From an uncultured Pseudomonadota bacterium (lineage in GTDB: Bacteria > Oederibacteriota > Muellerivitia > Muellerivitales > Muellerivitaceae), in the NCBI GenBank assembly GCA_963843375.1, contig CAWJKT010000025.1, positions 1 through 22,258 on the forward strand: a stretch of 22,258 nucleotides of DNA, in the 5' to 3' direction. The notes beneath the pieces are model-generated. The model ran no database searches and was not told the origin of the DNA. It was given only the letters and a program-made list of their open reading frames with translations. Both the position numbers and the translations under genes were made by a program. Within the stretch, counting starts at the first letter, position 1, and each line of letters starts with the position of its first letter. Below, one piece after another: positions 9,968-22,258 of this stretch.

Positions 9968-9998
9968 CTTATTACAAGTGCTTGGTTAAGGAAGTTTG

Positions 9999-10643
9999 AT
10001 GCAAAAATATTATTCGATAGAGGTGATTGGCCCGAATAAGGAACTTTTTACGATGGGGAAGTTTTCTGAAATTCCGGGTTCAAACCTTGGAATCATTGGA
10101 AAAGTTACCGGGCCTGGGAAATACATCGTGAATTTAATGGATGGACAACAGATATCTGTTCGTGGCGCAAGAGGTATAAAGGTTGGCGATGAAGTTCACG
10201 TCTTGACGAATGTTGAGAATGTGAAAGTAACAAAAGATAACTTGGAATCCCAAGAGGTCAAATTCAAGGAACCGGGATTGCAGTTACATGCTTTTTTACC
10301 GTTAGGATTTGGGGGTAAAGACGCGAGTGCATCTTTAAGGGTTTACGTTGAAAAGAAAAAAGATGAATTTTTAAAAAATTTTTTACCGGCAATTTATTTT
10401 GTTTTCAATATTCACACCGAGAAACTGGGCGAGCTTCAGTGGAGCATCTATATGAAAGGTCGTCAAGTGGCCATACAAGTTTTTTCCGATATTGTGCATA
10501 TAGAAAATGATGTGTTTAAAAAAATAGTTAATAATGTTGAAAAAAACCTTAGGGACGCGGGTTTTCACTTGATGACTCCAACGGTTTTTTTAAAGAATGC
10601 ATTTCGAATCCCCGAGGGTTTTCGCTTAAATGTTAAGGGGTGA
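9999..10643 (+). CDS. Hypothetical protein with FliK C-terminal (T3S4)-like domain
   Basis: C-terminal 'FNIHTEKLGELQWSIYMKGRQVAIQVFSD...VEKNLRDAGF' resembles the FliK_C pattern; directly precedes a FlhB_C-like gene; ATG 9999 after AAGGAAG. Confidence 0.5.
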   Translation: MQKYYSIEVIGPNKELFTMGKFSEIPGSNLGIIGKVTGPGKYIVNLMDGQQISVRGARGIKVGDEVHVLTNVENVKVTKDNLESQEVKFKEPGLQLHAFLPLGFGGKDASASLRVYVEKKKDEFLKNFLPAIYFVFNIHTEKLGELQWSIYMKGRQVAIQVFSDIVHIENDVFKKIVNNVEKNLRDAGFHLMTPTVFLKNAFRIPEGFRLNVKG

Positions 10644-10949
10644 TTGTTGAGTCCGGAACCGCGGCGCCGAAAGAAAACGACACGAAAGACTGCGGTAGCT
10701 ATTCAGTATGATCGGGAAGCGATGTCGGCTCCCAAGGTCGTTGCGAAGGGACGGGGAGGAGTTGCTGAACGATTAATTGAATTGGCACGAGAAAATAAAA
10801 TACCGATTGTGGAAGACAAGTTATTGGTAGAGATGTTGGATCAATTAAATTTGAACCAAGAAATTCCAGGTGAGCTGTATCAAGTAGTGGCAGAAATTTT
10901 AGTTGCGGTTTATAAAGCAGAAGCGGGATTGAAAAAAAAGACATCCTGA
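10644..10949 (+). CDS. Stand-alone FlhB C-terminal domain protein (EscU/YscU/HrcU family, YlqH/FlhX-like)
   Basis: 'AVAIQYD...APKVVAKGRGGVAERLIELARENKIPIVED...EIPGELYQVVAEIL' aligns by eye with the post-NPTH part of FlhB in this window. Start is TTG 10644 or 10647. Confidence 0.9.
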   Translation: MLSPEPRRRKKTTRKTAVAIQYDREAMSAPKVVAKGRGGVAERLIELARENKIPIVEDKLLVEMLDQLNLNQEIPGELYQVVAEILVAVYKAEAGLKKKTS

Positions 10950-10997: not shown

Positions 10998-13157
10998 GTG
11001 CGAAAAATTTCAAAGTCTTTACATTTATTGATTTTAAAACCGAATTGTTTAGGGCGTTATTTGATTTTGCTCTTGGCGTTTTTCTGCGGGAATGCGACTG
11101 GGGCATTTGCCCAAACCACACCAATATTCGGACAACCATACACTTTTGGTATCGGCCCCAGAGCAATTGGTATGGGGGGGGCGTTTGTGGCGGTTGCGGA
11201 CGATGCATCAGCCGCTTATTGGAACGTTGCTGGGTTAGCTCAAATATCATCCTATGAAATTTCTCTCTCCAGTGCTCCTAATTATTTTTATCGGAATCAA
11301 GATTATGTTGCTGCGACTCCCACTTCGCCAAGTAACAGTCCGGGTTTTGGTTTTCCTTGGTACGCTTCTTTGCAGATTATTATCCCGGTGGCGAAGGATA
11401 ATACCTTCGGGATTTCCTTATTTCGTCCATATCATACGCAAAGTGATCTTTTTGCCGGAAATACAACCATAAATTCCAATCAAGCTTCGGAAGGAAGTTA
11501 TCTTTTAAATCCGACTTTTCAAGAAAGTGTTATTGAACTCTCTTATGCCGCTAGGCTACCGGCGGTAAGGAATTTCTTGGTCGGAATCAGCATCAAAAGG
11601 GTCACCAATGACCCTGATTACATTGACTATTTCGGCAATGATCCCGACCTCATTGAACAATTGACCAATCCGGTTCGAGTGATTGGGTATGGGGTGGATT
11701 TGGGAATCTTGTACCGTATTCCGGTCACCAAGTATTCTGAAGAATTTAGAATTGGCCTTGCATTAAATAATTTGGTTAGTCGCGTCCAATACCCCAATGG
11801 GTTGTTAATTAGTCCAGGGGACGGCACCCCTGTTTTCGAAAATCCTGGCCCGGGGTCTGAATTCCAGATGCCGCCCCAAATTACCCTGGGAATTGCTTAT
11901 AAAAATAATTATTTCTTTAAGGTTCGGAATATTACTGCTTTTGATTTTGACCAAATTTCAGATCCGGATTTTGGCAATACGAATAATAAAATTATGCATT
12001 TTGGTACGGAGTTCTGGTTTTTTAAAGATGTGGTAGGAATTCGTGCGGGATATTCAACCCCCTTAAGCGCGCCCGGAAATATCAGCCTGGGAGGGAGTAT
12101 CCGTGCTTTGGGTGGTGATTTTGAACTGGATGCCGCTTATTTGCAGGCGGTGAGTCCAACGGCAGATATTGCGGCGGGATCTCAGATTGGAACCTATGAC
12201 ACGGGTGGCATTAATTATGAGCCCTTTTATATAGGCGCGACTTATCAATTTGGGGGTGGCGAGGAAATTCCCCCTCCCAAGGTGCGCGCTTTTGTTCGAC
12301 CGGCTGCCTTTACTCCTTCTCAGGGAGAAAAGGCGACCTTTAGTTTAGATACGACGGAAGATGTAAATATCAACCGTTGGAGTGTTCTTATTTATGATCA
12401 AACGGATCATTTGGTTCGAGGTTTAAGGGGAAGTGGATCTCCGCCGACCAAGTTATTGTGGAGTGGAGAAAATGAACAATATGAACCGCTTCCGCCCGGG
12501 ATTTATACCTGGTCATTCCAAGTTCAAGACCAGTTGGAACATGTAGGTTCAACCCCGGTCCAAACAGTGGAGATTTTGGCGCCTCCGGAAGCCGGGGCGG
12601 CTAAAGATCCAAGTAAACTCTTTGCAATTCGGCAACAACAAGCTGCGCTTTTAGCGCAAGAAAGACAGCAATTAACCGAATTGGCCCAACAAAGCCTTCG
12701 GCAATTATTGGGAACCGAAGAAGCGACCCCTACGACTGCGACTGCCGGTGAGAATCCAACTCCCGTAGAAGCTGGAGGAAATACAAATTATCCGGCCTTA
12801 GGACTTGAAGGGGTTCGGAATTTAACACCAGGCGAAGGATTAAATAGCCACAAAGAACCGGATTCAAATGGGGATCCAATGCTTGTTGTTAGCTATAAAT
12901 CAAAGCTAAACGACGCCAATTACGTTATTCAAGAAGCCGCCGATGTGATGAAAAATGACGTAAAAACAGTTGGAACTAAGGATTTTAAATCGATGTTAAT
13001 TAATGTATATTATGGCCAGCAGGGGAACGTGCTTTCGGTGAAAGCCAATACGGAAGCTGCGGCCAATTATGAATCTGGCAAAATTGATTTGTTAAGACTC
13101 AAACAATTATCAGAAATCTCTATAAATGGCGTAAAGGTGGAACCGGATGCTCAATAA
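10998..13157 (+). CDS. Secreted PorV/PorQ(UPF0164)-like beta-barrel protein with FlgD-Ig/CHU_C-like domain, coiled coil and unknown C-terminal domain
   Basis: Signal peptide (AFA|Q); family motif 'GPRAIGMGGAFVAVADDASAAYWNVAGLAQ'; amphipathic strands ending 'YIGATYQF'; then 'PAAFTP...WSVLIYD...LVR...LLWSGENE...LPPGIYTW'. Confidence 0.72.
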   Translation: MRKISKSLHLLILKPNCLGRYLILLLAFFCGNATGAFAQTTPIFGQPYTFGIGPRAIGMGGAFVAVADDASAAYWNVAGLAQISSYEISLSSAPNYFYRNQDYVAATPTSPSNSPGFGFPWYASLQIIIPVAKDNTFGISLFRPYHTQSDLFAGNTTINSNQASEGSYLLNPTFQESVIELSYAARLPAVRNFLVGISIKRVTNDPDYIDYFGNDPDLIEQLTNPVRVIGYGVDLGILYRIPVTKYSEEFRIGLALNNLVSRVQYPNGLLISPGDGTPVFENPGPGSEFQMPPQITLGIAYKNNYFFKVRNITAFDFDQISDPDFGNTNNKIMHFGTEFWFFKDVVGIRAGYSTPLSAPGNISLGGSIRALGGDFELDAAYLQAVSPTADIAAGSQIGTYDTGGINYEPFYIGATYQFGGGEEIPPPKVRAFVRPAAFTPSQGEKATFSLDTTEDVNINRWSVLIYDQTDHLVRGLRGSGSPPTKLLWSGENEQYEPLPPGIYTWSFQVQDQLEHVGSTPVQTVEILAPPEAGAAKDPSKLFAIRQQQAALLAQERQQLTELAQQSLRQLLGTEEATPTTATAGENPTPVEAGGNTNYPALGLEGVRNLTPGEGLNSHKEPDSNGDPMLVVSYKSKLNDANYVIQEAADVMKNDVKTVGTKDFKSMLINVYYGQQGNVLSVKANTEAAANYESGKIDLLRLKQLSEISINGVKVEPDAQ

Positions 13158-14718
13158 AATTCTGGGGCTGACCCTTCTCCTTTTTTCCCTGGTTGTTTCA
13201 GGATATGCGGCTTTTGACAAGGGGGGGATTACGGGCGACGGTGCTCGGCCTTTGGGAATGGGTGGGGCTTTTGCCTCGATAGCTGATTCGGGCGACGCCA
13301 TATTTTACAACCCAGCTGGGTTGGTCCAAGTCTTAAGGCCTGAAATTTCCGGAATGGGCGCGGTTCTTCTCAATGGGAAGGAAGATTTATTTGACTTTGC
13401 CTATGTCCAACCTTTTGGCGACCAATTCGCATGGGCTTTGGCCACTCAACAGCTTTTGTTTTCGGATGGTTCTGAAAATGAAAGAATTTATTACGGATCA
13501 TTTGCCGCTCCCTTGTCTATCGATAAATCGATTTCTTTTGGACTAAATGTCAAACTTTTTGGAGTCGATTCAGCAACTCAGCCGGGTCAACAAGCCAGCG
13601 GAACGGGACTGGATATGGGGTTTCTATACCATCTTCCAATATTGGATCCACGCTATGGCAAGCAAATTAACCTTGGATTGTGTGCGCAGGATCTTGATAC
13701 CCAAATTAGATACCAGGCCGGGAACGAAGAACCCGTTGCATTTAGCGTCAAGGGCGGGTCAAGTTATGAATTCAATGACGATCTAATTGCAGCCTGTGAA
13801 TTTGAAAGTATTGCCGATCCCAATTTAGGCGATCATACGATTATTCATACCGGGATTGAAGGCTGGTTTTTCGAGGATCAACTGGGCCTTCGGACGGGTT
13901 ATAGCGGTTTCGAAACTTTGCCGGGCGCATTTACGGCTGGGATAAGTTATCGTTCCAGTACTTGGGGAATTGAATATGCCTATATCGGCCACCCTGAGTA
14001 CCTTGGCGATTCCCATCGGATTTCAGCCAGTTGGAGATTTGGCGATTCTTTTCTTGGAAAAGTGAAAAGCTTTATTCCAGAGGGAGTTAACGCCTATGTT
14101 GAAGGTGACATCATCACGCTTCGGTGGAATAACTCTCCATCGTTATCATTATCAGGTTATAACGTTTATTTCAGCAAAACATCTGGCGGGGGTTACTTGA
14201 AGATTAACCAGAGACCCATTAAAGCCAATTATTATTCCTTACGGGGTTTGGAAAAAAACACTCATTATTATTTTGTAGTAAGTTCGGTAACCAATACAAT
14301 TCCGCCAGTGGAAAGTCAATTTTCACAAGAGGTAATGGCGGGGACTACCTCTGCACCGGGGGCTCCAGTTGTGGTACAAAGTGAAGTCCAAAACGAAGGC
14401 GTAATTGATATTGCCAAACAAGAAGGCATGGCTGGTTGGGGCGACCCGGCAAAAAGCGGGTTGAAGGGTTACAATATTTATGTTTCCGAAGTTTCTGGTG
14501 GAAGATTCGATAAAGTTAATGCTCAACCGATTGCAAATGTTCCGACTTATATAGTTCGAAAATTAAAAGTTGGTCAACGATATTACTTTACGTTTACGTC
14601 CGTTTCCAATGATGGTACGGAGAGCGCGCATTCTAAAGAAGTATCAGCAGTGGCTTTGCCTTTCAATTCCGTAGCACAGTCATCCGGGACAAATGTTCCG
14701 AATCAAACAAACCGTTAG
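13147..14718 (+). CDS. Secreted PorV/PorQ(UPF0164)-like beta-barrel protein with two C-terminal fibronectin type III domains
   Basis: Signal peptide (GYA|A); motif 'GARPLGMGGAFASIADSGDAIFYNPAGLVQ'; barrel end 'LGDSHRISASWRF'; FN3 repeats 'LRW...GYNVY...GLEKNTHYYFVVSSV...ESQFS' and 'W...GYNIY...KLKVGQRYYFTFTSV...ESAHS'. Confidence 0.75.
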   Translation: MLNKILGLTLLLFSLVVSGYAAFDKGGITGDGARPLGMGGAFASIADSGDAIFYNPAGLVQVLRPEISGMGAVLLNGKEDLFDFAYVQPFGDQFAWALATQQLLFSDGSENERIYYGSFAAPLSIDKSISFGLNVKLFGVDSATQPGQQASGTGLDMGFLYHLPILDPRYGKQINLGLCAQDLDTQIRYQAGNEEPVAFSVKGGSSYEFNDDLIAACEFESIADPNLGDHTIIHTGIEGWFFEDQLGLRTGYSGFETLPGAFTAGISYRSSTWGIEYAYIGHPEYLGDSHRISASWRFGDSFLGKVKSFIPEGVNAYVEGDIITLRWNNSPSLSLSGYNVYFSKTSGGGYLKINQRPIKANYYSLRGLEKNTHYYFVVSSVTNTIPPVESQFSQEVMAGTTSAPGAPVVVQSEVQNEGVIDIAKQEGMAGWGDPAKSGLKGYNIYVSEVSGGRFDKVNAQPIANVPTYIVRKLKVGQRYYFTFTSVSNDGTESAHSKEVSAVALPFNSVAQSSGTNVPNQTNR

Positions 14719-14733
14719 TTAAGGAGCGAGAAA

Positions 14734-15519
14734 ATGCCCAGTGGCCTTTACATAGCAGCTTCGGGTATGGATTCGGCTCTTATGCGCCAAAACGTTATCG
14801 CGAACAACTTGGCAAATCTTCAAACCCCTGGTTTTAAACAAAATCGAGAGGTCGATATCGCTTTTCCGACTTACCTCATCGCCCGATTACACGATCAACG
14901 AATGAATGTAATGGATGGAACCGCGGAAATTCGGCCGAATATTGGTGTTATGGGTGGCGGGGTTATTCCACAGGAAGTTGCCACGGATTATTCCCAGGGT
15001 TCTCACCTTGAAACTAAAAACCCCTTAGATTTTGCCTTGAATGGGCCTGGCTTTTTCTCGGTTTTAAATCCAGATGGAAAAACATTGTTGACAAGAGACG
15101 GGAGCTTTAGTTTGGATAATAATGGGCGTCTTGTTACTAAAGATGGATTACCTGTTTTGGGCCATAATGGCGAAATATATATTGATGGAAATGAGGTGAC
15201 TGCCGACCAAGAGGGAAATATATCCGTTGATGGAAAAGCGCTTGATCAGCTTTTAACCGTCAAAGTACAAAACGTTGATCAATTAACAAAGGTTGGCCAT
15301 TCACTTTTCAAAACGACTCCCAAAACAAAGGTCGATATGGCGCCTGATGGAATTCAAGTTCAACAAGGTTTTTTGGAACAATCAAACGTGAATTCGATCA
15401 CTGAAATGGTTAATATGATCGATACTTATCGATCTTATGAATTGAATTCCAGAATCATTTCGACTTTTGACCATCTTGGTGAAGAGGCCGCAACTGAAAT
15501 TGGAACTTTAAGGGTTTAA
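14734..15519 (+). CDS. flgF: Flagellar basal-body proximal rod protein FlgF (FlhO-like)
   Basis: 'ANNLANLQTPGFK', 'NPLDFAL', 'LTRDGSF', 'QGFLEQSNVN..EMVNMI'; first of the flgF-flgG pair; AAGGAG RBS. Confidence 0.85.
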   Translation: MPSGLYIAASGMDSALMRQNVIANNLANLQTPGFKQNREVDIAFPTYLIARLHDQRMNVMDGTAEIRPNIGVMGGGVIPQEVATDYSQGSHLETKNPLDFALNGPGFFSVLNPDGKTLLTRDGSFSLDNNGRLVTKDGLPVLGHNGEIYIDGNEVTADQEGNISVDGKALDQLLTVKVQNVDQLTKVGHSLFKTTPKTKVDMAPDGIQVQQGFLEQSNVNSITEMVNMIDTYRSYELNSRIISTFDHLGEEAATEIGTLRV

Positions 15520-15661
15520 TTTAACAAGGTTTTGATGGTTGGGTAAGTGGAAGTAAACGGCCGGACTGCTATGCAGGGGCCGTTCCAGCGCTGAACGATT
15601 GAGGCGAGGGAAAAACTGAAAGCTGAAGTTATTACCGGCTTTCAAACCTGAGGAGGCTTTT

Positions 15662-16460
15662 ATGATGCAGTCACTGTACACGGCGGCTACGGGTATGTCC
15701 GCCCAACAGTTGAATCTTGACACGATTTCCAACAACTTGGCAAACGTGAGCACCACGGGGTTCAAAGCCCAACGGGTGGATTTTCAGGACTTAGTCTATA
15801 GCAATTTGAAACCGGCTGGGACGCCCACTTCCCCCGAAACAAACACTCCCGATGGGCTTCAGATCGGTGAAGGCGTTATGCCGATTTCGACTGAACGAAT
15901 TTTCACCGAAGGGGCCATTCAAAACACTAACAATCCTTTGGATGTATTAATAACTGGAAACAGCGGTTTTTTCCAAGTGACACTTCCGAATGGGGAAACG
16001 GCGTACACTCGCGATGGTTCTTTTACCCAGGATGGTAACGGAAACATTGTCACGGCGAATGGTTATTTTTTAAACCCTCCCATCCAGCTTCCTGCAGAAA
16101 CAAGTTCTATTCAAATCACCTCGACTGGTCAGGTCATGGTGCAGGCTGGAGGATCTACCCAGGCGGTCCAAATTGGCCAGTTGGAATTAACGAATTTTGT
16201 AAATCCGGGCGGGCTTAGCGCGATTGGGAATAACCTTTTTCTGCAAACCCCGGCTTCGGGAGATCCTATTGTAGGAACCCCTGGCGCTGATAGGATTTTC
16301 CCAGGTTCAACAAGGTTCTCTGGAAACCTCTAACGTGGATGTGGTAACCGAGATGGTTAACATGATTGTAGCTCAACGCGCCTATGAAATGAATTCAAAG
16401 ACCGTTTCAACCGCTGATACTATGTTGCTGGATCTTGCCGACATGAAGCAATTTCCCTGA
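15662..16460 (+). CDS. flgG: Flagellar distal rod protein FlgG (apparent +1 frameshift near 16292)
   Basis: '[20 protein letters not shown]', 'GLQIGEGV', 'FVNPGGL'. The conserved C-terminus '[30 protein letters not shown]' continues in the +1 frame to TGA 16458-16460 (265 aa once repaired). Confidence 0.93.
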
Positions 16461-16475
16461 TGCTGAATTAGCGGC

Positions 16476-17453
16476 ATGACGCAAGTTAAGTGGTTAACGG
16501 TTTTTTTATGTTTGACTTTTCCTTTATATGCTGATGAAGGTCTTTTGACCATACATCTATTGGAAAAGTCTACAGTTGTTGGTCCGCAAGTGAGTTTGGG
16601 AGACGTTGCGGAGATAACTGGAAATAATAGAGCGATGATTGAGAGGGTACGACGTTTAGTTGTAAGCCGGGCGGCGCCTTCGGGAGAGCGAATCAAGATT
16701 AACCAAGGCTATGTTAAGGTTGTTCTTCGCCGCGAGGGTTTTTCCCTGGATGACTTTGCATTTGAAGGCGCAGATACAACGGAAGTATTGACCCAGAGCC
16801 AGGTTTATTTCTCCGACGAACTTCTTCCCGAGGCGAAGTCGTTTGTTTTGGGGGAAATTAACGAACCTACTGAAGACATTGAAGTGAAATTGGATGGGGA
16901 TAATAGAAAAATAATTTTGCCGGCCGGCAAAGTCACTGCAAATTTTCGACCGTCATTTTCGGGGAAATACGACGGTGCGGTTTTATTGACAGTGGAGTTG
17001 GAAGTGGACGACCATTTGATAGAGGTACTGCCTTTACGCTTGACGGTGGATGTTTATCGACCGGCTGTGGTAACGACCAAAAGGGTTGAAAAGGGTGAAG
17101 TTTTTACTGCTGGAAATATCGCTTTGGTTCGTGAGCCGAGTTCTAAAATAATGCAAGGATGTTTTCGCCAGTTAAATTACGTTTTGGGTCGTAAAGCTTC
17201 TGCCCCAATAATTCCGGATACGGTTATTCGGGTAAATGATATTTTTGATCCCCCGGTTATTACTCGGGGCAAGATAGTTCAGGCGATAATGCGGCTTGGA
17301 AATGTGGAACTCACCGTGGATGCGAGGGCGGTTGAAGATGGTAAGGCCGGGGATATTATCCGGGTTGAGAACTCGGATTCGCATAAAGTTCTTCGGGCCA
17401 AGGTTTTGGATGAAAAAACGGTTTTAATTCAAAACGATGAACCGAAGTATTAG
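16476..17453 (+). CDS. flgA: P-ring formation chaperone FlgA (long form)
   Basis: Signal peptide, N-terminal 'VSLGDVAEI' domain, C-terminal SAF/ChapFlgA motif 'ARAVEDGKAGDIIRVENSDSHKVLRAKV'; sits between flgG and flgH. Confidence 0.9.
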   Translation: MTQVKWLTVFLCLTFPLYADEGLLTIHLLEKSTVVGPQVSLGDVAEITGNNRAMIERVRRLVVSRAAPSGERIKINQGYVKVVLRREGFSLDDFAFEGADTTEVLTQSQVYFSDELLPEAKSFVLGEINEPTEDIEVKLDGDNRKIILPAGKVTANFRPSFSGKYDGAVLLTVELEVDDHLIEVLPLRLTVDVYRPAVVTTKRVEKGEVFTAGNIALVREPSSKIMQGCFRQLNYVLGRKASAPIIPDTVIRVNDIFDPPVITRGKIVQAIMRLGNVELTVDARAVEDGKAGDIIRVENSDSHKVLRAKVLDEKTVLIQNDEPKY

Positions 17454-17472
17454 TTAGATGGGAGACATGTTA

Positions 17473-18087
17473 ATGAAAATGTGCTTTTTGATTTTGATCG
17501 GATTCGGAGTTTTGGCGGTGGATCAAGGTCTTTTGGCCGATTCGCTTTATCCAAGTGAAGGGTCCAATTCCATTTATACCGAGAAACGGGCGCGCCGAGT
17601 CGGCGACGTGATCACGGTAATGATTGAAGAAAATACCGCTGCTTCTCAAGCGGCTGGAAGTCAATATAACAAAAATGCCAGTGTGGCCTTGGGGGCGGGG
17701 TCTGGGTTTTTAGGTGCAGGCTCCTACGGCGGGGGTGTCCTCAATTCACCTAGCCAGATAGGTATTGGAGCTAGTTCCGCGCACCAAGGACAAGGTACTT
17801 CCAGCCGAAGCACGACGGTTACGGGGGAAATGACTGCCAAAATTCTTTCGGTTTTACCCAATGGAAATTATCAAATTTCGGGTAGCCGCTATGTTGAAGT
17901 TAATGATGAAAAACAAACGATCGAAGTTACAGGTGAGATACGTGCGGATGATATTTCCAAGGAAAACACGATTTCTTCCCAACGGATCGCGAATGCTAAA
18001 ATTAAGTTCACTGGTACGGGCCCCGCGACGGAGGTGGCCCAACCCGGAATATTAACCCGTGTTTTAGGTTGGTTAGGGCTCTTTTAG
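17473..18087 (+). CDS. flgH: Flagellar L-ring protein FlgH
   Basis: 'RARRVGDVITVMIEE', 'VLPNGNYQISG', 'GEIRADDISKENTISSQRIANAKI'. ATG 17473 is best spaced from GGAG (the track starts at 17458). Confidence 0.93.
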   Translation: MKMCFLILIGFGVLAVDQGLLADSLYPSEGSNSIYTEKRARRVGDVITVMIEENTAASQAAGSQYNKNASVALGAGSGFLGAGSYGGGVLNSPSQIGIGASSAHQGQGTSSRSTTVTGEMTAKILSVLPNGNYQISGSRYVEVNDEKQTIEVTGEIRADDISKENTISSQRIANAKIKFTGTGPATEVAQPGILTRVLGWLGLF

Positions 18088-18104
18088 AAAACCTGGAGGA
18101 AATT

Positions 18105-19217
18105 GTGATCGGCAAAAAAAAAGAAATATTATTTCTGATGATTTTTGTTCTTTGCGTTGGGACTGCCCAGTCCGCTCAGGTTCGATTAAAAACCATTGCG
18201 ACAGTAAAAGGGGTTCGGGAAAATCAATTGATTGGGTATGGCTTGGTGGTCGGTCTTCAGCGAACGGGTGATACGCAAAGGGTTGTTTCTACTTTGCAAA
18301 GCATAACTAACATGTTGATGAATTTTGGGATCAAAATTAGTTCGGACCAGATTCGAACCCAAAATGTTGGTGCCGTTATGGTCACGGCCCAATTGGCGCC
18401 ACTGTTAAAATCAGGCGATAAAATTGATGTTACGGTTTCTTCCATCGGCGATGCCAGAAGCCTGCAGGGTGGAACTTTGTTGATGACCCCTCTCCAAGGC
18501 CCTGACGGGCAAGTTTATGCTGTAGCTCAAGGACCACTCGCTGTGGGTGGTTTTTCAGATAATACGGGAGAGTTTCCTTTAATCCAGGTTAACCATACGA
18601 CTGTGGGCCGGGTGCCAAATGGCGCATCCGTGGAACGGGAAGTTCCTTCCACTTTTGTTGATAATGACACCATCTCAATCCTTTTGGATCGTCCGGATTT
18701 TGGCCAGGCATCCTTAGTCACACAAGCCCTTAACCAACAATTTGGCGAACAAGTAGCCAAAGCGCTGGATGGCGGGCAGGTTGATGTGAAAGTCCCCTTT
18801 AATTATCGTGATAATGTTGTTGATTTTATTGCTGCCGTTGAAGATGCGTCGGTGGCGACTGATTCTCCCGCCAATCGGGTTGTAGTTAATGAGAAAACGG
18901 GAACTGTTGTTCTTGGACAAGATGTAAGAATTGACGCTGTGGCAATTGCCCACGGGAATCTCCGATTGGTGATTAAAAAGACGACGGAAATCACTCACGA
19001 CGCAGTTTTTGGACACGATGAACTCACGCATACGACTACTATCAGTTCTGATGAACCGGATAAGAAAGGCAATTTGGTGGTCTTGCCGGAGGGCGCAACC
19101 TTGATGGATGTGGTTGAGGCGGTTAACGCAGTGGGAGCAACCCCGAGGGATTTGATTTCAATTCTTCAAGCGGTCAAAGAAGAAGGGGCATTACACGCTG
19201 AATTAGATATTCTTTAA
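18105..19217 (+). CDS. flgI: Flagellar P-ring protein FlgI
   Basis: 'GVRENQLIGYGLVVGL', 'DVTVSSIGDARSLQGGTLLMTPL', 'GATPRDLISILQA...GALHAEL'; GTG 18105 after GGAGG. Confidence 0.97.
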   Translation: MIGKKKEILFLMIFVLCVGTAQSAQVRLKTIATVKGVRENQLIGYGLVVGLQRTGDTQRVVSTLQSITNMLMNFGIKISSDQIRTQNVGAVMVTAQLAPLLKSGDKIDVTVSSIGDARSLQGGTLLMTPLQGPDGQVYAVAQGPLAVGGFSDNTGEFPLIQVNHTTVGRVPNGASVEREVPSTFVDNDTISILLDRPDFGQASLVTQALNQQFGEQVAKALDGGQVDVKVPFNYRDNVVDFIAAVEDASVATDSPANRVVVNEKTGTVVLGQDVRIDAVAIAHGNLRLVIKKTTEITHDAVFGHDELTHTTTISSDEPDKKGNLVVLPEGATLMDVVEAVNAVGATPRDLISILQAVKEEGALHAELDIL

Positions 19218-19235
19218 AATTAAGGAACTTTAATA

Positions 19236-19706
19236 GTGAATCTTCCAACCCAAGCCGTTTCTTTTTTGCCGTTCGGACTGTCCGATCCTTCAAAGGCTTT
19301 CCCAGTGGAAGCAATGCAGAAGGCTTTTTCCCTTCAACCGAGTTTGGCCTCTAAAGCGGCGGATCAAGTAGTGATGGGACAATCGGGTTTATCGCACTTA
19401 ACCAAAAACCTATCGTCTACATCCTTGAATCCATTACACACATTACCCACCCATTCGGATGCTGAAATTCGACAAGTGTCTAAAAATTTCGAATCTATTT
19501 TTTTGCAGATGGTTTTTAAAGAGATGAGAAAATCCGTCCAAAAATCGAATTTATTGGGTAACTCACAAGGAATGGAAATATTTGAAAGCATGTACGATGA
19601 AGATTTAACCCAACAGCTTGCTTCCGCCGGGGGAGTGGGATTGGGACAAATGATTTATCAAAAACTAAAAGCCGTTACCGTACCCCATAAAAAAACCTTT
19701 TCATGA
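19236..19706 (+). CDS. flgJ: FlgJ rod-capping protein, rod-binding domain only (no muramidase)
   Basis: 'SKNFESIFLQMVFKEMRKSV...IFESMYDEDLTQQLA...GVGLGQMIYQKL'; 156 aa; follows flgI. Confidence 0.88.
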   Translation: MNLPTQAVSFLPFGLSDPSKAFPVEAMQKAFSLQPSLASKAADQVVMGQSGLSHLTKNLSSTSLNPLHTLPTHSDAEIRQVSKNFESIFLQMVFKEMRKSVQKSNLLGNSQGMEIFESMYDEDLTQQLASAGGVGLGQMIYQKLKAVTVPHKKTFS

Positions 19707-20137: not shown

Positions 20138-20224
20138 AACGGCCTTTTCCGGGGTTTTTGTATAAATGGCTTTATTTAAGCCTTTTCTGGCCCCGCTCTA
20201 AGTTCCCCTTAAACCATTTTATCC

Positions 20225-20251
20225 TAAAGTTTTTAAGGCTTAAACCGTTAG
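20225..20251 (+). promoter_or_regulatory. Candidate sigma-28 promoter of flgM
   Basis: TAAAGTTT-N11-ACCGTTAG versus consensus TAAAGTTT-N11-GCCGATAA (8/8 and 5/8, exact spacing), ending 28 nt before the flgM ATG. Confidence 0.7.
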
Positions 20252-20279
20252 GTTCCTTAGAAAACCAAGGAGTTTACCT

Positions 20280-21074: not shown

Positions 21075-22258
21075 ATGATTAATTCTTATTCGGGATTTTA
21101 TACCATTACCCAAGGATTGCAAGTTGAGCAACTCCTTGAAAATATAACCGCTTCGAATTTGGCCAATCCTTCGGTGGATTCCAATGGATACTTGGTAAGT
21201 AGTCTTCAACAAGTTAACCTTGGCACGGGGCCTTCCGAAATTCTTTCGACCGCGAATGGAAATATAGCTGTTTCTTCGGGGCCGGCGGTCGAGTCGATCA
21301 CGAGTCTTCGTAGTTCATTCTTGGATTCCCAAATTCAAAATGAAAGCTCTATTTTGGGATCGGCTGAAATTTTGTCCAATTCCGCAGGCTCGGGCATATT
21401 AAATCTTATTAACAATATCGTGAATGGACCTTCTACATTAAGCGGTGCACTGACCACATTTGCAAATGATTGGGGTAATTTGGCTACCAACACCGGCACC
21501 AGCGCTGCTGTGGTAAACGCGGGCGTTGCGTTTGCCCAACTGGCGAATTCTCAGTTTGATCAATTGACTACCTTGCAACAAAACAATAATGCTCAAATCA
21601 ATAATTCGGTTTCCAAAATTAATCAGCTCCTGCAGCAATTGTCTTCCATCAACCAACAGCTTTTAAACTCCCAAGGCGCGGCAAACGTCAATAGCTTGTT
21701 AGATGCAAGAGATTATGCTTTGGATCTGCTTTCTCGACAGATAAATATCCAAACGAACATAGGCGTTGCCGGAACGGTAAGCGTTTATTTGGGCGGAAGC
21801 AGTGTGACTTTGGTGGATCCGTCTGGGGCAGCAATTTTGCAGACGAACTCGGAGAACCCGAATTATCCCGAACTTCTGGGCGTGACCATACAAAGTCCGG
21901 AAGGCGGATACTACGACACTAATGCATCGGAAACCCCGAACAATATGGCCCAATGGATTACCGGCGGTAACCTGGGCGGTGAACTTCAAGGCCAAAATAC
22001 AATCTTGTCCTACCAAGAGCAAGTTGATCAAATCGCCACTTCGGTGCTGAATATAACCAATTCCTTTAACGAAGCGGGTTACGGGGCGGGCGGATCGACT
22101 ACTGGAACCCCGTTTTTCTACGGTACTGGGGCCGCGAGCATTAGTGTAAACGCAGTTTTGCTTAGTAATAACAGTCTCGTTGGATCTTCACTTATTCCTA
22201 ACACCGACCCGAATTTTGGTCTGGTTAATCCAGCTTATTCGGCAGAGGGAATTTTATA
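21075..22258 (+). CDS. flgK: Hook-associated protein 1 FlgK (3' end outside window)
   Basis: Open frame from ATG 21075 (after AAGGGGG) to the window end: MINSYSGFYTITQGL...SNLAN...SITSLRSSFLDSQIQ...INQLLQQLSSINQQL...NSLLDARDYALDLLS...GGNLGG...GTPFF. Not listed in the ORF track because no stop falls in the window. Confidence 0.9.
   Translation, partial: MINSYSGFYTITQGLQVEQLLENITASNLANPSVDSNGYLVSSLQQVNLGTGPSEILSTANGNIAVSSGPAVESITSLRSSFLDSQIQNESSILGSAEILSNSAGSGILNLINNIVNGPSTLSGALTTFANDWGNLATNTGTSAAVVNAGVAFAQLANSQFDQLTTLQQNNNAQINNSVSKINQLLQQLSSINQQLLNSQGAANVNSLLDARDYALDLLSRQINIQTNIGVAGTVSVYLGGSSVTLVDPSGAAILQTNSENPNYPELLGVTIQSPEGGYYDTNASETPNNMAQWITGGNLGGELQGQNTILSYQEQVDQIATSVLNITNSFNEAGYGAGGSTTGTPFFYGTGAASISVNAVLLSNNSLVGSSLIPNTDPNFGLVNPAYSAEGIL

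Follow-up and report, generated by a model that had tools for sequence, protein, structure and literature searches.

The window analysed here, a 22,258-nucleotide (nt) stretch (positions 1 to 22,258 of contig CAWJKT010000025.1) from an uncultured bacterium of the phylum FCPU426/Goldbacteria, is a single flagellar gene cluster, and it contains two tandem genes, named A and B in the following (Table 1; window numbering), whose products are predicted β-barrels related to the PorV protein of type IX secretion (T9SS). We find that this feature is real and conserved, and that the pair is most likely an outer-membrane part of a flagellin-less flagellar machine. The evidence consists of barrel models for both proteins, a conserved A-B-flgF-G-A-H-I order, the absence of filament genes, the retention of stator, export and hook genes, and the enlargement of FlgK, FlgE and FliK. 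Our preferred reading, which we consider to stand an even chance, is that A and B would form an outer-membrane anchor or collar round the L/P rings, bracing a flagellin-less basal body that has motor and hook genes. So far as our searches show, no other integral barrel of PorV/FadL type has yet been put forward as part of a basal body, and the pair is a clean marker of the flagellin-less system.

Fold, gene order and distribution of the A/B pair

The cluster reads fliR-flhB-flhA-flhF-flhG-fliA-fapA-...-flhB2-A-B-flgF-G-A-H-I-J-yvyF-flgM-N-K, with an 11-nt overlap between A and B and the start of flgF 15 nt past the stop of B. This layout, together with the motif shared by both proteins (residues 51-82 of A and 30-61 of B), agrees with a first-pass annotation made from the DNA letters. 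That annotation also saw no hairpin before flgF. We likewise found no terminator-like site between 14142 and 15637, but the scan is weak evidence, as it returned 11 sites in the region against 9.8 in shuffles. The signal peptides of A and B were called by eye.

A β-barrel fold had been expected, and the AlphaFold models support it. That of B (mean predicted local distance difference test score (pLDDT) of 84) has a 14-stranded barrel and two Fn3 domains, whereas that of A (pLDDT 82) has a 14-stranded barrel, an immunoglobulin-like (Ig) domain, a 33-residue helix, a disordered linker and an alpha/beta domain. PorV is the best PDB match for both models (Foldseek E values of 4e-10 and 6e-12; 4e-10 for B), and the barrel of A also matches FadL (Z 26.7) and three chains of the Bacteroidota β-barrel assembly machinery (BAM; Z 25.7-26.5). 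The earlier assignment to the PorV/PorQ/UPF0164 family is sustained by fold, motif and matches to the NF033709 PorV/PorQ profile (A, 79.8 bits, E 2.7e-22; B, 65.1 bits, E 7.7e-18), but both scores fall under the 90-bit cut-off, and the Pfam PorV, UPF0164 and Toluene_X profiles report neither protein at an E value of 0.01. With 15-21 bits against equivalog cut-offs of 250 for PorV (NF033710) and 220 for PorQ (NF033711), A and B are, by score, not PorV or PorQ, and the models, each with a 14-stranded barrel and an N-terminal hatch, place them in the wider PorV/FadL barrel superfamily. The two barrels share 25% identity; the closest paralogue of the B barrel (G000 C3:138549-139988, 39% identity) lies away from flagellar genes and is widespread in family f1.

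Both termini of PorV/FadL-type barrels point to the periplasm, so the tails of A and B are predicted to be periplasmic. The Ig domain of A resembles FlgD_ig, which matches the A orthologue of the closed genome G074 with an E value of 4e-6, and the long helix that follows it in the model is a possible oligomerisation segment. The last domain of A has 36 matches among 1.84 billion representatives, and its best score in the Atlas is 0.84, a lead below 0.9 with no family; two of the large matches (P0238 and P0241) were inspected, proved to be repeat proteins and were dismissed. No conserved Cys was seen in the alignment of A or of B. Likeness to FlgO, FlgP or FlgT gave no match in Pfam, NCBIfam or PDB searches, in which the last domain of A was covered only within the whole model, a fold search that barely probed it.

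Proteins of the PorV-like family occur in all 99 genomes of the phylum compared here (families f1-f23), with 24 PorV_fam matches at about 19 loci in the window's own genome, so adjacency to flagellar genes in one genome would mean little. The motif alone is thus unremarkable, but the conserved position of the two orthologues exceeds chance. The C-terminal domain of A marks 64 of the 99 genomes, and the same 64 carry an orthologue of B. FlgI was found in 69 genomes, and a quick tree splits it into 40 and 11 rows with a support of 99, corresponding to two flagellar systems. The type linked to A and B is present in 63 genomes, 61 of which have the pair; the other two are 74% and 82% complete and consist of short contigs. 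Among the 61, B lies at most 7 kb from flgI in 52, on a different short contig in eight and separated from it in one, G074. The order A-B-flgF-G-A-H-I is kept in relatives, and orthologues away from flagellar loci, which the first-pass annotation had named as evidence that would speak against its proposal, were found once, in that genome.

The pair stays with flgF even where the upstream fliR-flhB2 block has been swapped for housekeeping genes. In families f3 and f10-f23 this block is mostly elsewhere and A-B is still 5' of flgF, and 11 loci with a replaced upstream block have a conserved sigma-70-like promoter before A, as judged by eye. Neither gene was seen in the stretch fetched around any of 11 flgI loci of the second type, A is missing from all 15 genomes of f8 and f9, and the pair from 27 genomes without FlgI; in the non-flagellated families f4-f7, all 13 genomes are without FlgI and A and still hold 9 to 19 or more PorV_fam matches. 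A metagenome scan added about 11 full or partial orthologues of A among 80 loci kept, and the five annotated metagenome loci with A show the same context as far as each contig reached. The labels in the genome scan were mostly FCPU426, Goldbacteria and Firestonebacteria, the others being 'bacterium' or scattered names.

A flagellar system without detectable filament genes

Flagellin_N and Flagellin_C each match 13 of the 99 genomes. Twelve of these matches are strong, all in genomes with the second system, which is free of A and B, and the strong flagellin genes adjoin second-system genes where contigs allow; the thirteenth, in G003, is weak. No strong flagellin match was found in 59 of the 64 A-bearing genomes (36 of them at least 90% complete and 25 at least 96%, including closed G074), and the remaining five carry the second system. 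Nine of 46 genomes gave a FliD match, each of them a carrier of the second system, and none of the 27 A-only genomes did. Searches for FlgL and FliS were negative in four near-closed A-only genomes and positive for both in G092, which has both systems, while second-system flagellin and FlgL used as queries returned nothing credible in G000 (best E value of 0.009) or in A/B-type loci. In the A/B-type loci read, flgK is followed by fliK or unrelated genes and never by flgL. By these profile and pairwise searches, the A/B-linked system has no detectable flagellin, FlgL, FliD or FliS; of a canonical flagellum, the motor and hook part is present and the filament part is not found. Five genomes (G087, G091-G093 and G035; loci L012-L016) hold both a flagellin-less and a complete flagellin-bearing system, the latter accompanied in G087 and G091-G093 by a sigma-54 activator and a hybrid kinase.

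That these genomes encode an ordinary flagellum, with the four genes diverged past detection or unassembled and with A and B as accessories in the manner of FlgO, FlgP and FlgT, is the least probable of the explanations that we weighed. It would be in keeping with the search methods, which were limited to profiles and pairwise comparison, with the retention of FliA, FlgM, FlgN and FlgK, which normally serve a filament, and with the weak FlgL-like match in G003. However, the same searches readily find all four genes in the second system and in control genomes, and all four are missing in closed G074 and in 25 A-bearing genomes that are at least 96% complete. The absence of flgL after flgK also argues against it, and the G003 match comes from an epimerase fused to FlgL, encoded on a 6.7-kb contig that bears no other flagellar labels. 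Finally, the six top-scoring sigma-28-type sites of G000, described below, precede no flagellin-like gene by family match, one 130-residue gene among them being unassigned.

What the A/B system keeps is extensive. Its gene set includes the export gate, C ring, MS ring, rod, L/P rings, hook, FliL and stators, as seen in the G054 cluster and in the same order in other families, and the MotB plug is present in 40 of the 41 A-bearing genomes searched, with its Asp in all seven examined. Several of its proteins are larger than their second-system counterparts: FlgK has 699-821 residues at 17 A/B loci against 463-472 at nine second-system loci, FlgE about 500-870 against 407-413, and FliK 743-1079 (14 loci, longest open reading frames) against 447-476 (three loci). 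The FlgK insertion scores 0.91-0.94 against Flagellin_IN clusters in the Atlas with low shared counts, and is a lead only. In the accessible part of a study of Salmonella, FliK variants of 363-785 residues gave hooks of 42-135 nm, or 0.2 nm per residue (PMC6126814), and by this calibration, partly extrapolated, the hooks here would be about 125-190 nm long. Additional copies of such genes were seen: two surplus flgE copies arranged in tandem, with a PorV-like gene after them, in G000 (C6:201445-204984; L142), a tandem pair also in G046 (L176), and, in family f3 (L168 and L169; G001 and G004), three tandem fliL copies with a FlgE of 742-873 residues.

Absent filament genes and a long FliK would also suit a machine that is mainly a secretion needle, as proposed for the Buchnera or Lysobacter remnants, in which A and B would serve in assembly, opening or sealing the outer membrane for the rod, and would not be lasting braces. 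G074 has no CheW, which 55 of 61 genomes possess, and fliA and flgM were not seen in its fetched clusters; moreover, non-flagellated forms of the flagellar type III secretion system with other roles are described in the portion of the literature available to us (PMC7688988). Nonetheless, stators with the catalytic Asp, FliL, FliM/N and FlhF/G are retained throughout and inspection of the clusters revealed no conserved effector gene, which makes this explanation very unlikely.

The hook genes of one clade, that of the window, appear to be expressed late. The motif CT[AC]AAG-N16-CGTTAG stands 5' of flgM in all ten f1/f2 loci and, because it sits there, is presumably recognised by FliA; Goldbacteria-like loci have a more canonical TAAAG-N-CGATAT 5' of flgM in eight of nine cases, with G074 as the exception. 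A scoring matrix trained on the flgM sites alone (null 99th percentile of 7.5 and maximum of 14.0, n = 599) gives 16.8-31.0 before flgD at all seven f1/f2 fliK-flgD junctions, and 13.9-27.3 before a stand-alone second flgE in five of ten loci, the other five scoring at most 1.6. In G000, six sites score at least 20, whereas 20 shuffles gave 0.65 such sites on average and at most 4. These six stand 5' of flgM, flgD, the second flgE, the genes of two secreted proteins and that of a 130-residue protein. The excess is confined to this range, since sites scoring at least 13 are no more frequent than in shuffles (15 versus 13, 7 and 15), and a scan of G000 with the canonical sigma-28 consensus was set aside as unspecific after 74 matches. 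By eye, G042 has a canonical site before flgD and nine other loci from other families have none, so the late hook-gene promoter is clade-limited. The 130-residue protein (G000 C14:179477-179869, minus strand), helical-looking and without a signal peptide, is a candidate late export substrate.

A proposed collar and its rivals

Under the collar reading, A and B would be exported by Sec, inserted by BAM and assembled with the rod/ring block encoded beside them. An A:B complex might then form the collar at the L/P rings, in contact with FlgI and with FlgH, which has no lipid anchor of its own, and the periplasmic tails could reach the P ring or the stators and steady the motor. The end structure would be a long hook that has the enlarged FlgK as its cap, is driven round by MotAB and acts as a tether, sensor or short propeller. 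A bolder version, tentative and on balance rather unlikely, is a rotary appendage of FCPU426/Goldbacteria in which a motor-driven FlgE polymer, expressed late from the sigma-28 promoters of flgD-flgE and the second flgE, replaces the flagellin filament, ends in the enlarged-FlgK cap and is held in the outer membrane by a barrel pair of the T9SS family. If true, it would join a flagellar organelle that has no filament to a module derived from the T9SS. The first-pass annotation had suggested a flagellum-associated outer-membrane module, and family, fold and linkage leave this as the best reading, although the ordinary flagellum that it assumed is not what the linked system encodes as far as flagellin can be detected. 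A filament sheath, which it also considered, is unlikely, because the linked system is without detectable flagellin and the flagellin-bearing system is without A and B.

Several observations weigh against the collar. In closed G074, A-B sits between ahcY and ribD, 260 kb from flgF. The window's genome has about 19 PorV-like loci, and several genomes have other PorV genes close to flgK or flgE, so that members of the family are common beside anything. Related genomes are not independent, and a single ancestral operon might account for the pattern. The cases of loss in individual genomes are unclean: G046 (99% complete) was rejected as a case of co-loss, as its contig stops after flhG and FliG, FlhA and MotB are present, and G052, which retains an flgE/flgD remnant, is ambiguous. 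The barrels might act through their outer loops, as PorV does. Judged by eye at 37 loci, FlgH (17458-18087 in the window) carries a signal-peptidase-I-like site and lacks a lipobox Cys in either of the phylum's two systems, including ten of ten A/B-free loci, so a lipid-less L ring does not need A and B, and the idea that they substitute for a FlgH lipid anchor was dropped as non-discriminating.

Some of these points would fit an independent envelope module that shares only an ancestral operon with flgF-I. G074 parts A-B from flgF yet keeps the two genes together, the phylum has a much enlarged PorV family, and the distance correlations with FlgI (0.81 and 0.67 over 19 genomes) are as expected from vertical descent alone. 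We regard it as quite unlikely, however, given that gene order persists where A has diverged to 23-35% identity and the flanks differ, and that the pair is missing from 27 genomes without FlgI and from all of f8 and f9.

The main rival, still an unlikely one, is that A and B act like PorV/PorQ, docking cargo tagged with a T9SS C-terminal domain (CTD) after its export by a SprA-like translocon and keeping it on the cell surface at the hook base, which would couple a T9SS-like pathway to the rotary motor; a possible link to T9SS-like surface export had also been raised by the first-pass annotation. PorV is their top structural match. SprA-like proteins of 1851-2177 residues occur in five of five genomes (multi-segment TIGR04189 matches under the cut-off), CTD-like cargo and PorV pairs lie 3' of flgK or flgE in several genomes, and G000 has a 1022-residue CTD-like protein with a sigma-28-type promoter, with the same site in G054 and G067. 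On the other hand, A and B score under the PorV_fam cut-off and far under those of the PorV and PorQ equivalogs, their large tails suit a scaffold better than a shuttle, a SprA-like gene is also present in G023, which has no A or B, and no conserved cargo gene stands next to A-B. With T9SS PorV and PorQ (6h3i_F and 8gl6_F; NF033709) the pair shares a hatch-plugged 14-stranded barrel and the N-terminal GxRxxGMGGA motif, but differs in its low identity (15-18%), its scores under the cut-offs, its fused C-terminal domains, its place in a rod/ring operon and the lack of a GldM/PorM match (PF12081) in five of five genomes, a profile for which control genomes also fell below the cut-off. Beside many PorV paralogues and CTD-like cargoes, the SprA-like proteins (G054 C1:512305-515895, G074 C1:116673-119915 and others) outline a T9SS-like pathway outside Bacteroidota.

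The collar that we favour has partial parallels in known machines. FlgO/FlgP/FlgT of the Vibrio H ring, the FlgP basal disc and the Helicobacter pylori lipoprotein HP0838 share the role proposed here for the pair, that of tying the L/P-ring region to the outer membrane. They are lipoproteins or periplasmic proteins on filament-bearing flagella, and no homology to A or B was detected. BamG, a FadL-like barrel built into the Bacteroidota BAM as a fixed subunit, provides a precedent for such a part in an unrelated machine, in the sections of its description at hand (PMC12578637), and the three BAM chains matched by A (9hjm_F, 9n2d_B and 9hj3_F) are probably BamG, judging from entry titles and size. 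In the same account, BamG has BamA as its partner and uses its loops to bind a surface lipoprotein, whereas A and B have C-terminal domains and a genetic linkage to a flagellar basal body.

Flagellar remnants without a filament are described for Buchnera aphidicola and Lysobacter enzymogenes OH11 in the available part of one source (PMC7688988). As far as that source goes, they resemble the A/B system in having basal-body, ring and hook genes without fliC. The A/B system differs in being an otherwise complete set with stators, conserved over about 17 families, and it alone has enlarged FliK, FlgE and FlgK, sigma-28-type hook promoters in one clade and a dedicated barrel pair; in Buchnera, the stators are lost. 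The portion seen of a 2026 preprint survey puts the absence of fliC at about 2-5% of genomes with flagellar gene sets, so that a lineage-wide stator, ring and hook system without a filament is unexpected, and it reports that FCPU426 has lost about 35% of its ancestral flagellar genes and lists a comparable loss for UBA9089, with PorV unmentioned in that portion (PMC13277936). Flagellar genes in the phylum are noted in the part consulted of the Goldbacteria paper (PMC7031533), and our literature search found nothing on the A/B pair or on a flagellin-less system in FCPU426/Goldbacteria. Calls of motility in the phylum that are made from 'flagellar genes' may thus be wrong, and the system is relevant to what a motor does when it has no filament and to forms intermediate between flagellum and injectisome.

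The locus and its neighbourhood

Table 1. Coordinates of the A/B pair, its predicted domains and neighbouring features in the window
Feature	Position	Strand	Description
gene A	10998..13157	+	719 residues; signal-like N terminus, PorV/FadL-type barrel, Ig domain, helix, linker, alpha/beta C-terminal domain
A, hatch and 14-stranded barrel (about residues 38-420)	11109..12257	+	predicted by model; PorV 6h3i_F, Z 29.0, root-mean-square deviation (rmsd) 3.2, 290 aligned
A, Ig domain (FlgD_ig / T9SS-CTD-like)	12264..12584	+	predicted periplasmic; best Ig match PorU 6za2_B, Z 13.0, rmsd 2.3, 100 aligned
A, long helix (residues 538-570)	12609..12707	+	DSSP of model
A, C-terminal alpha/beta domain	12801..13154	+	only in A orthologues
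gene B	13147..14718	+	523 residues; signal-like N terminus, PorV-type 14-stranded barrel (about 22-298), two Fn3 domains
flgF	14734..15519	+	directly 3' of B in nearly all genomes
flgG, flgA, flgH (without lipobox Cys), flgI, flgJ	15662..19706	+	rod/ring block travelling with A-B
sigma-28-type promoter of flgM-flgN-flgK	20223..20252	+	CT[AC]AAG-N16-CGTTAG; same motif 5' of flgD and second flgE elsewhere in the genome
flgK	21075..22258	+	truncated by contig end

Misbinning of the low-GC contig (C25) was considered and rejected, with a GC fraction of 0.434 against 0.418 for the same cluster in G054. Single extra bases at 16288 and 15548 are absent from the short-read contigs of four of four and two of two covering runs, respectively; the flgG break at 16288 is therefore an assembly error and not a real pseudogene. 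Many similar breaks affect the G000 flagellar genes on C13 and C15.

A second FliK-like gene (window 9996-10949; L162 and L266-L272) precedes the short flhB-like gene and encodes 215 residues here, as against 837-1251 in other families. Just 5' of flgG in f1 and f2, at 15557-15606 in the window, lies a conserved element with two hairpin-like arms (GGCYGGAC...GGCC, then CGCYGA...GGCG). An Rfam search of 14700-16500 gave no match, and RNAalifold recovered only three pairs in the element. The same two-armed element occurs 5' of flgE in other families (L155 and L164-L169), and it is possibly a translational RNA element common to rod and hook genes.

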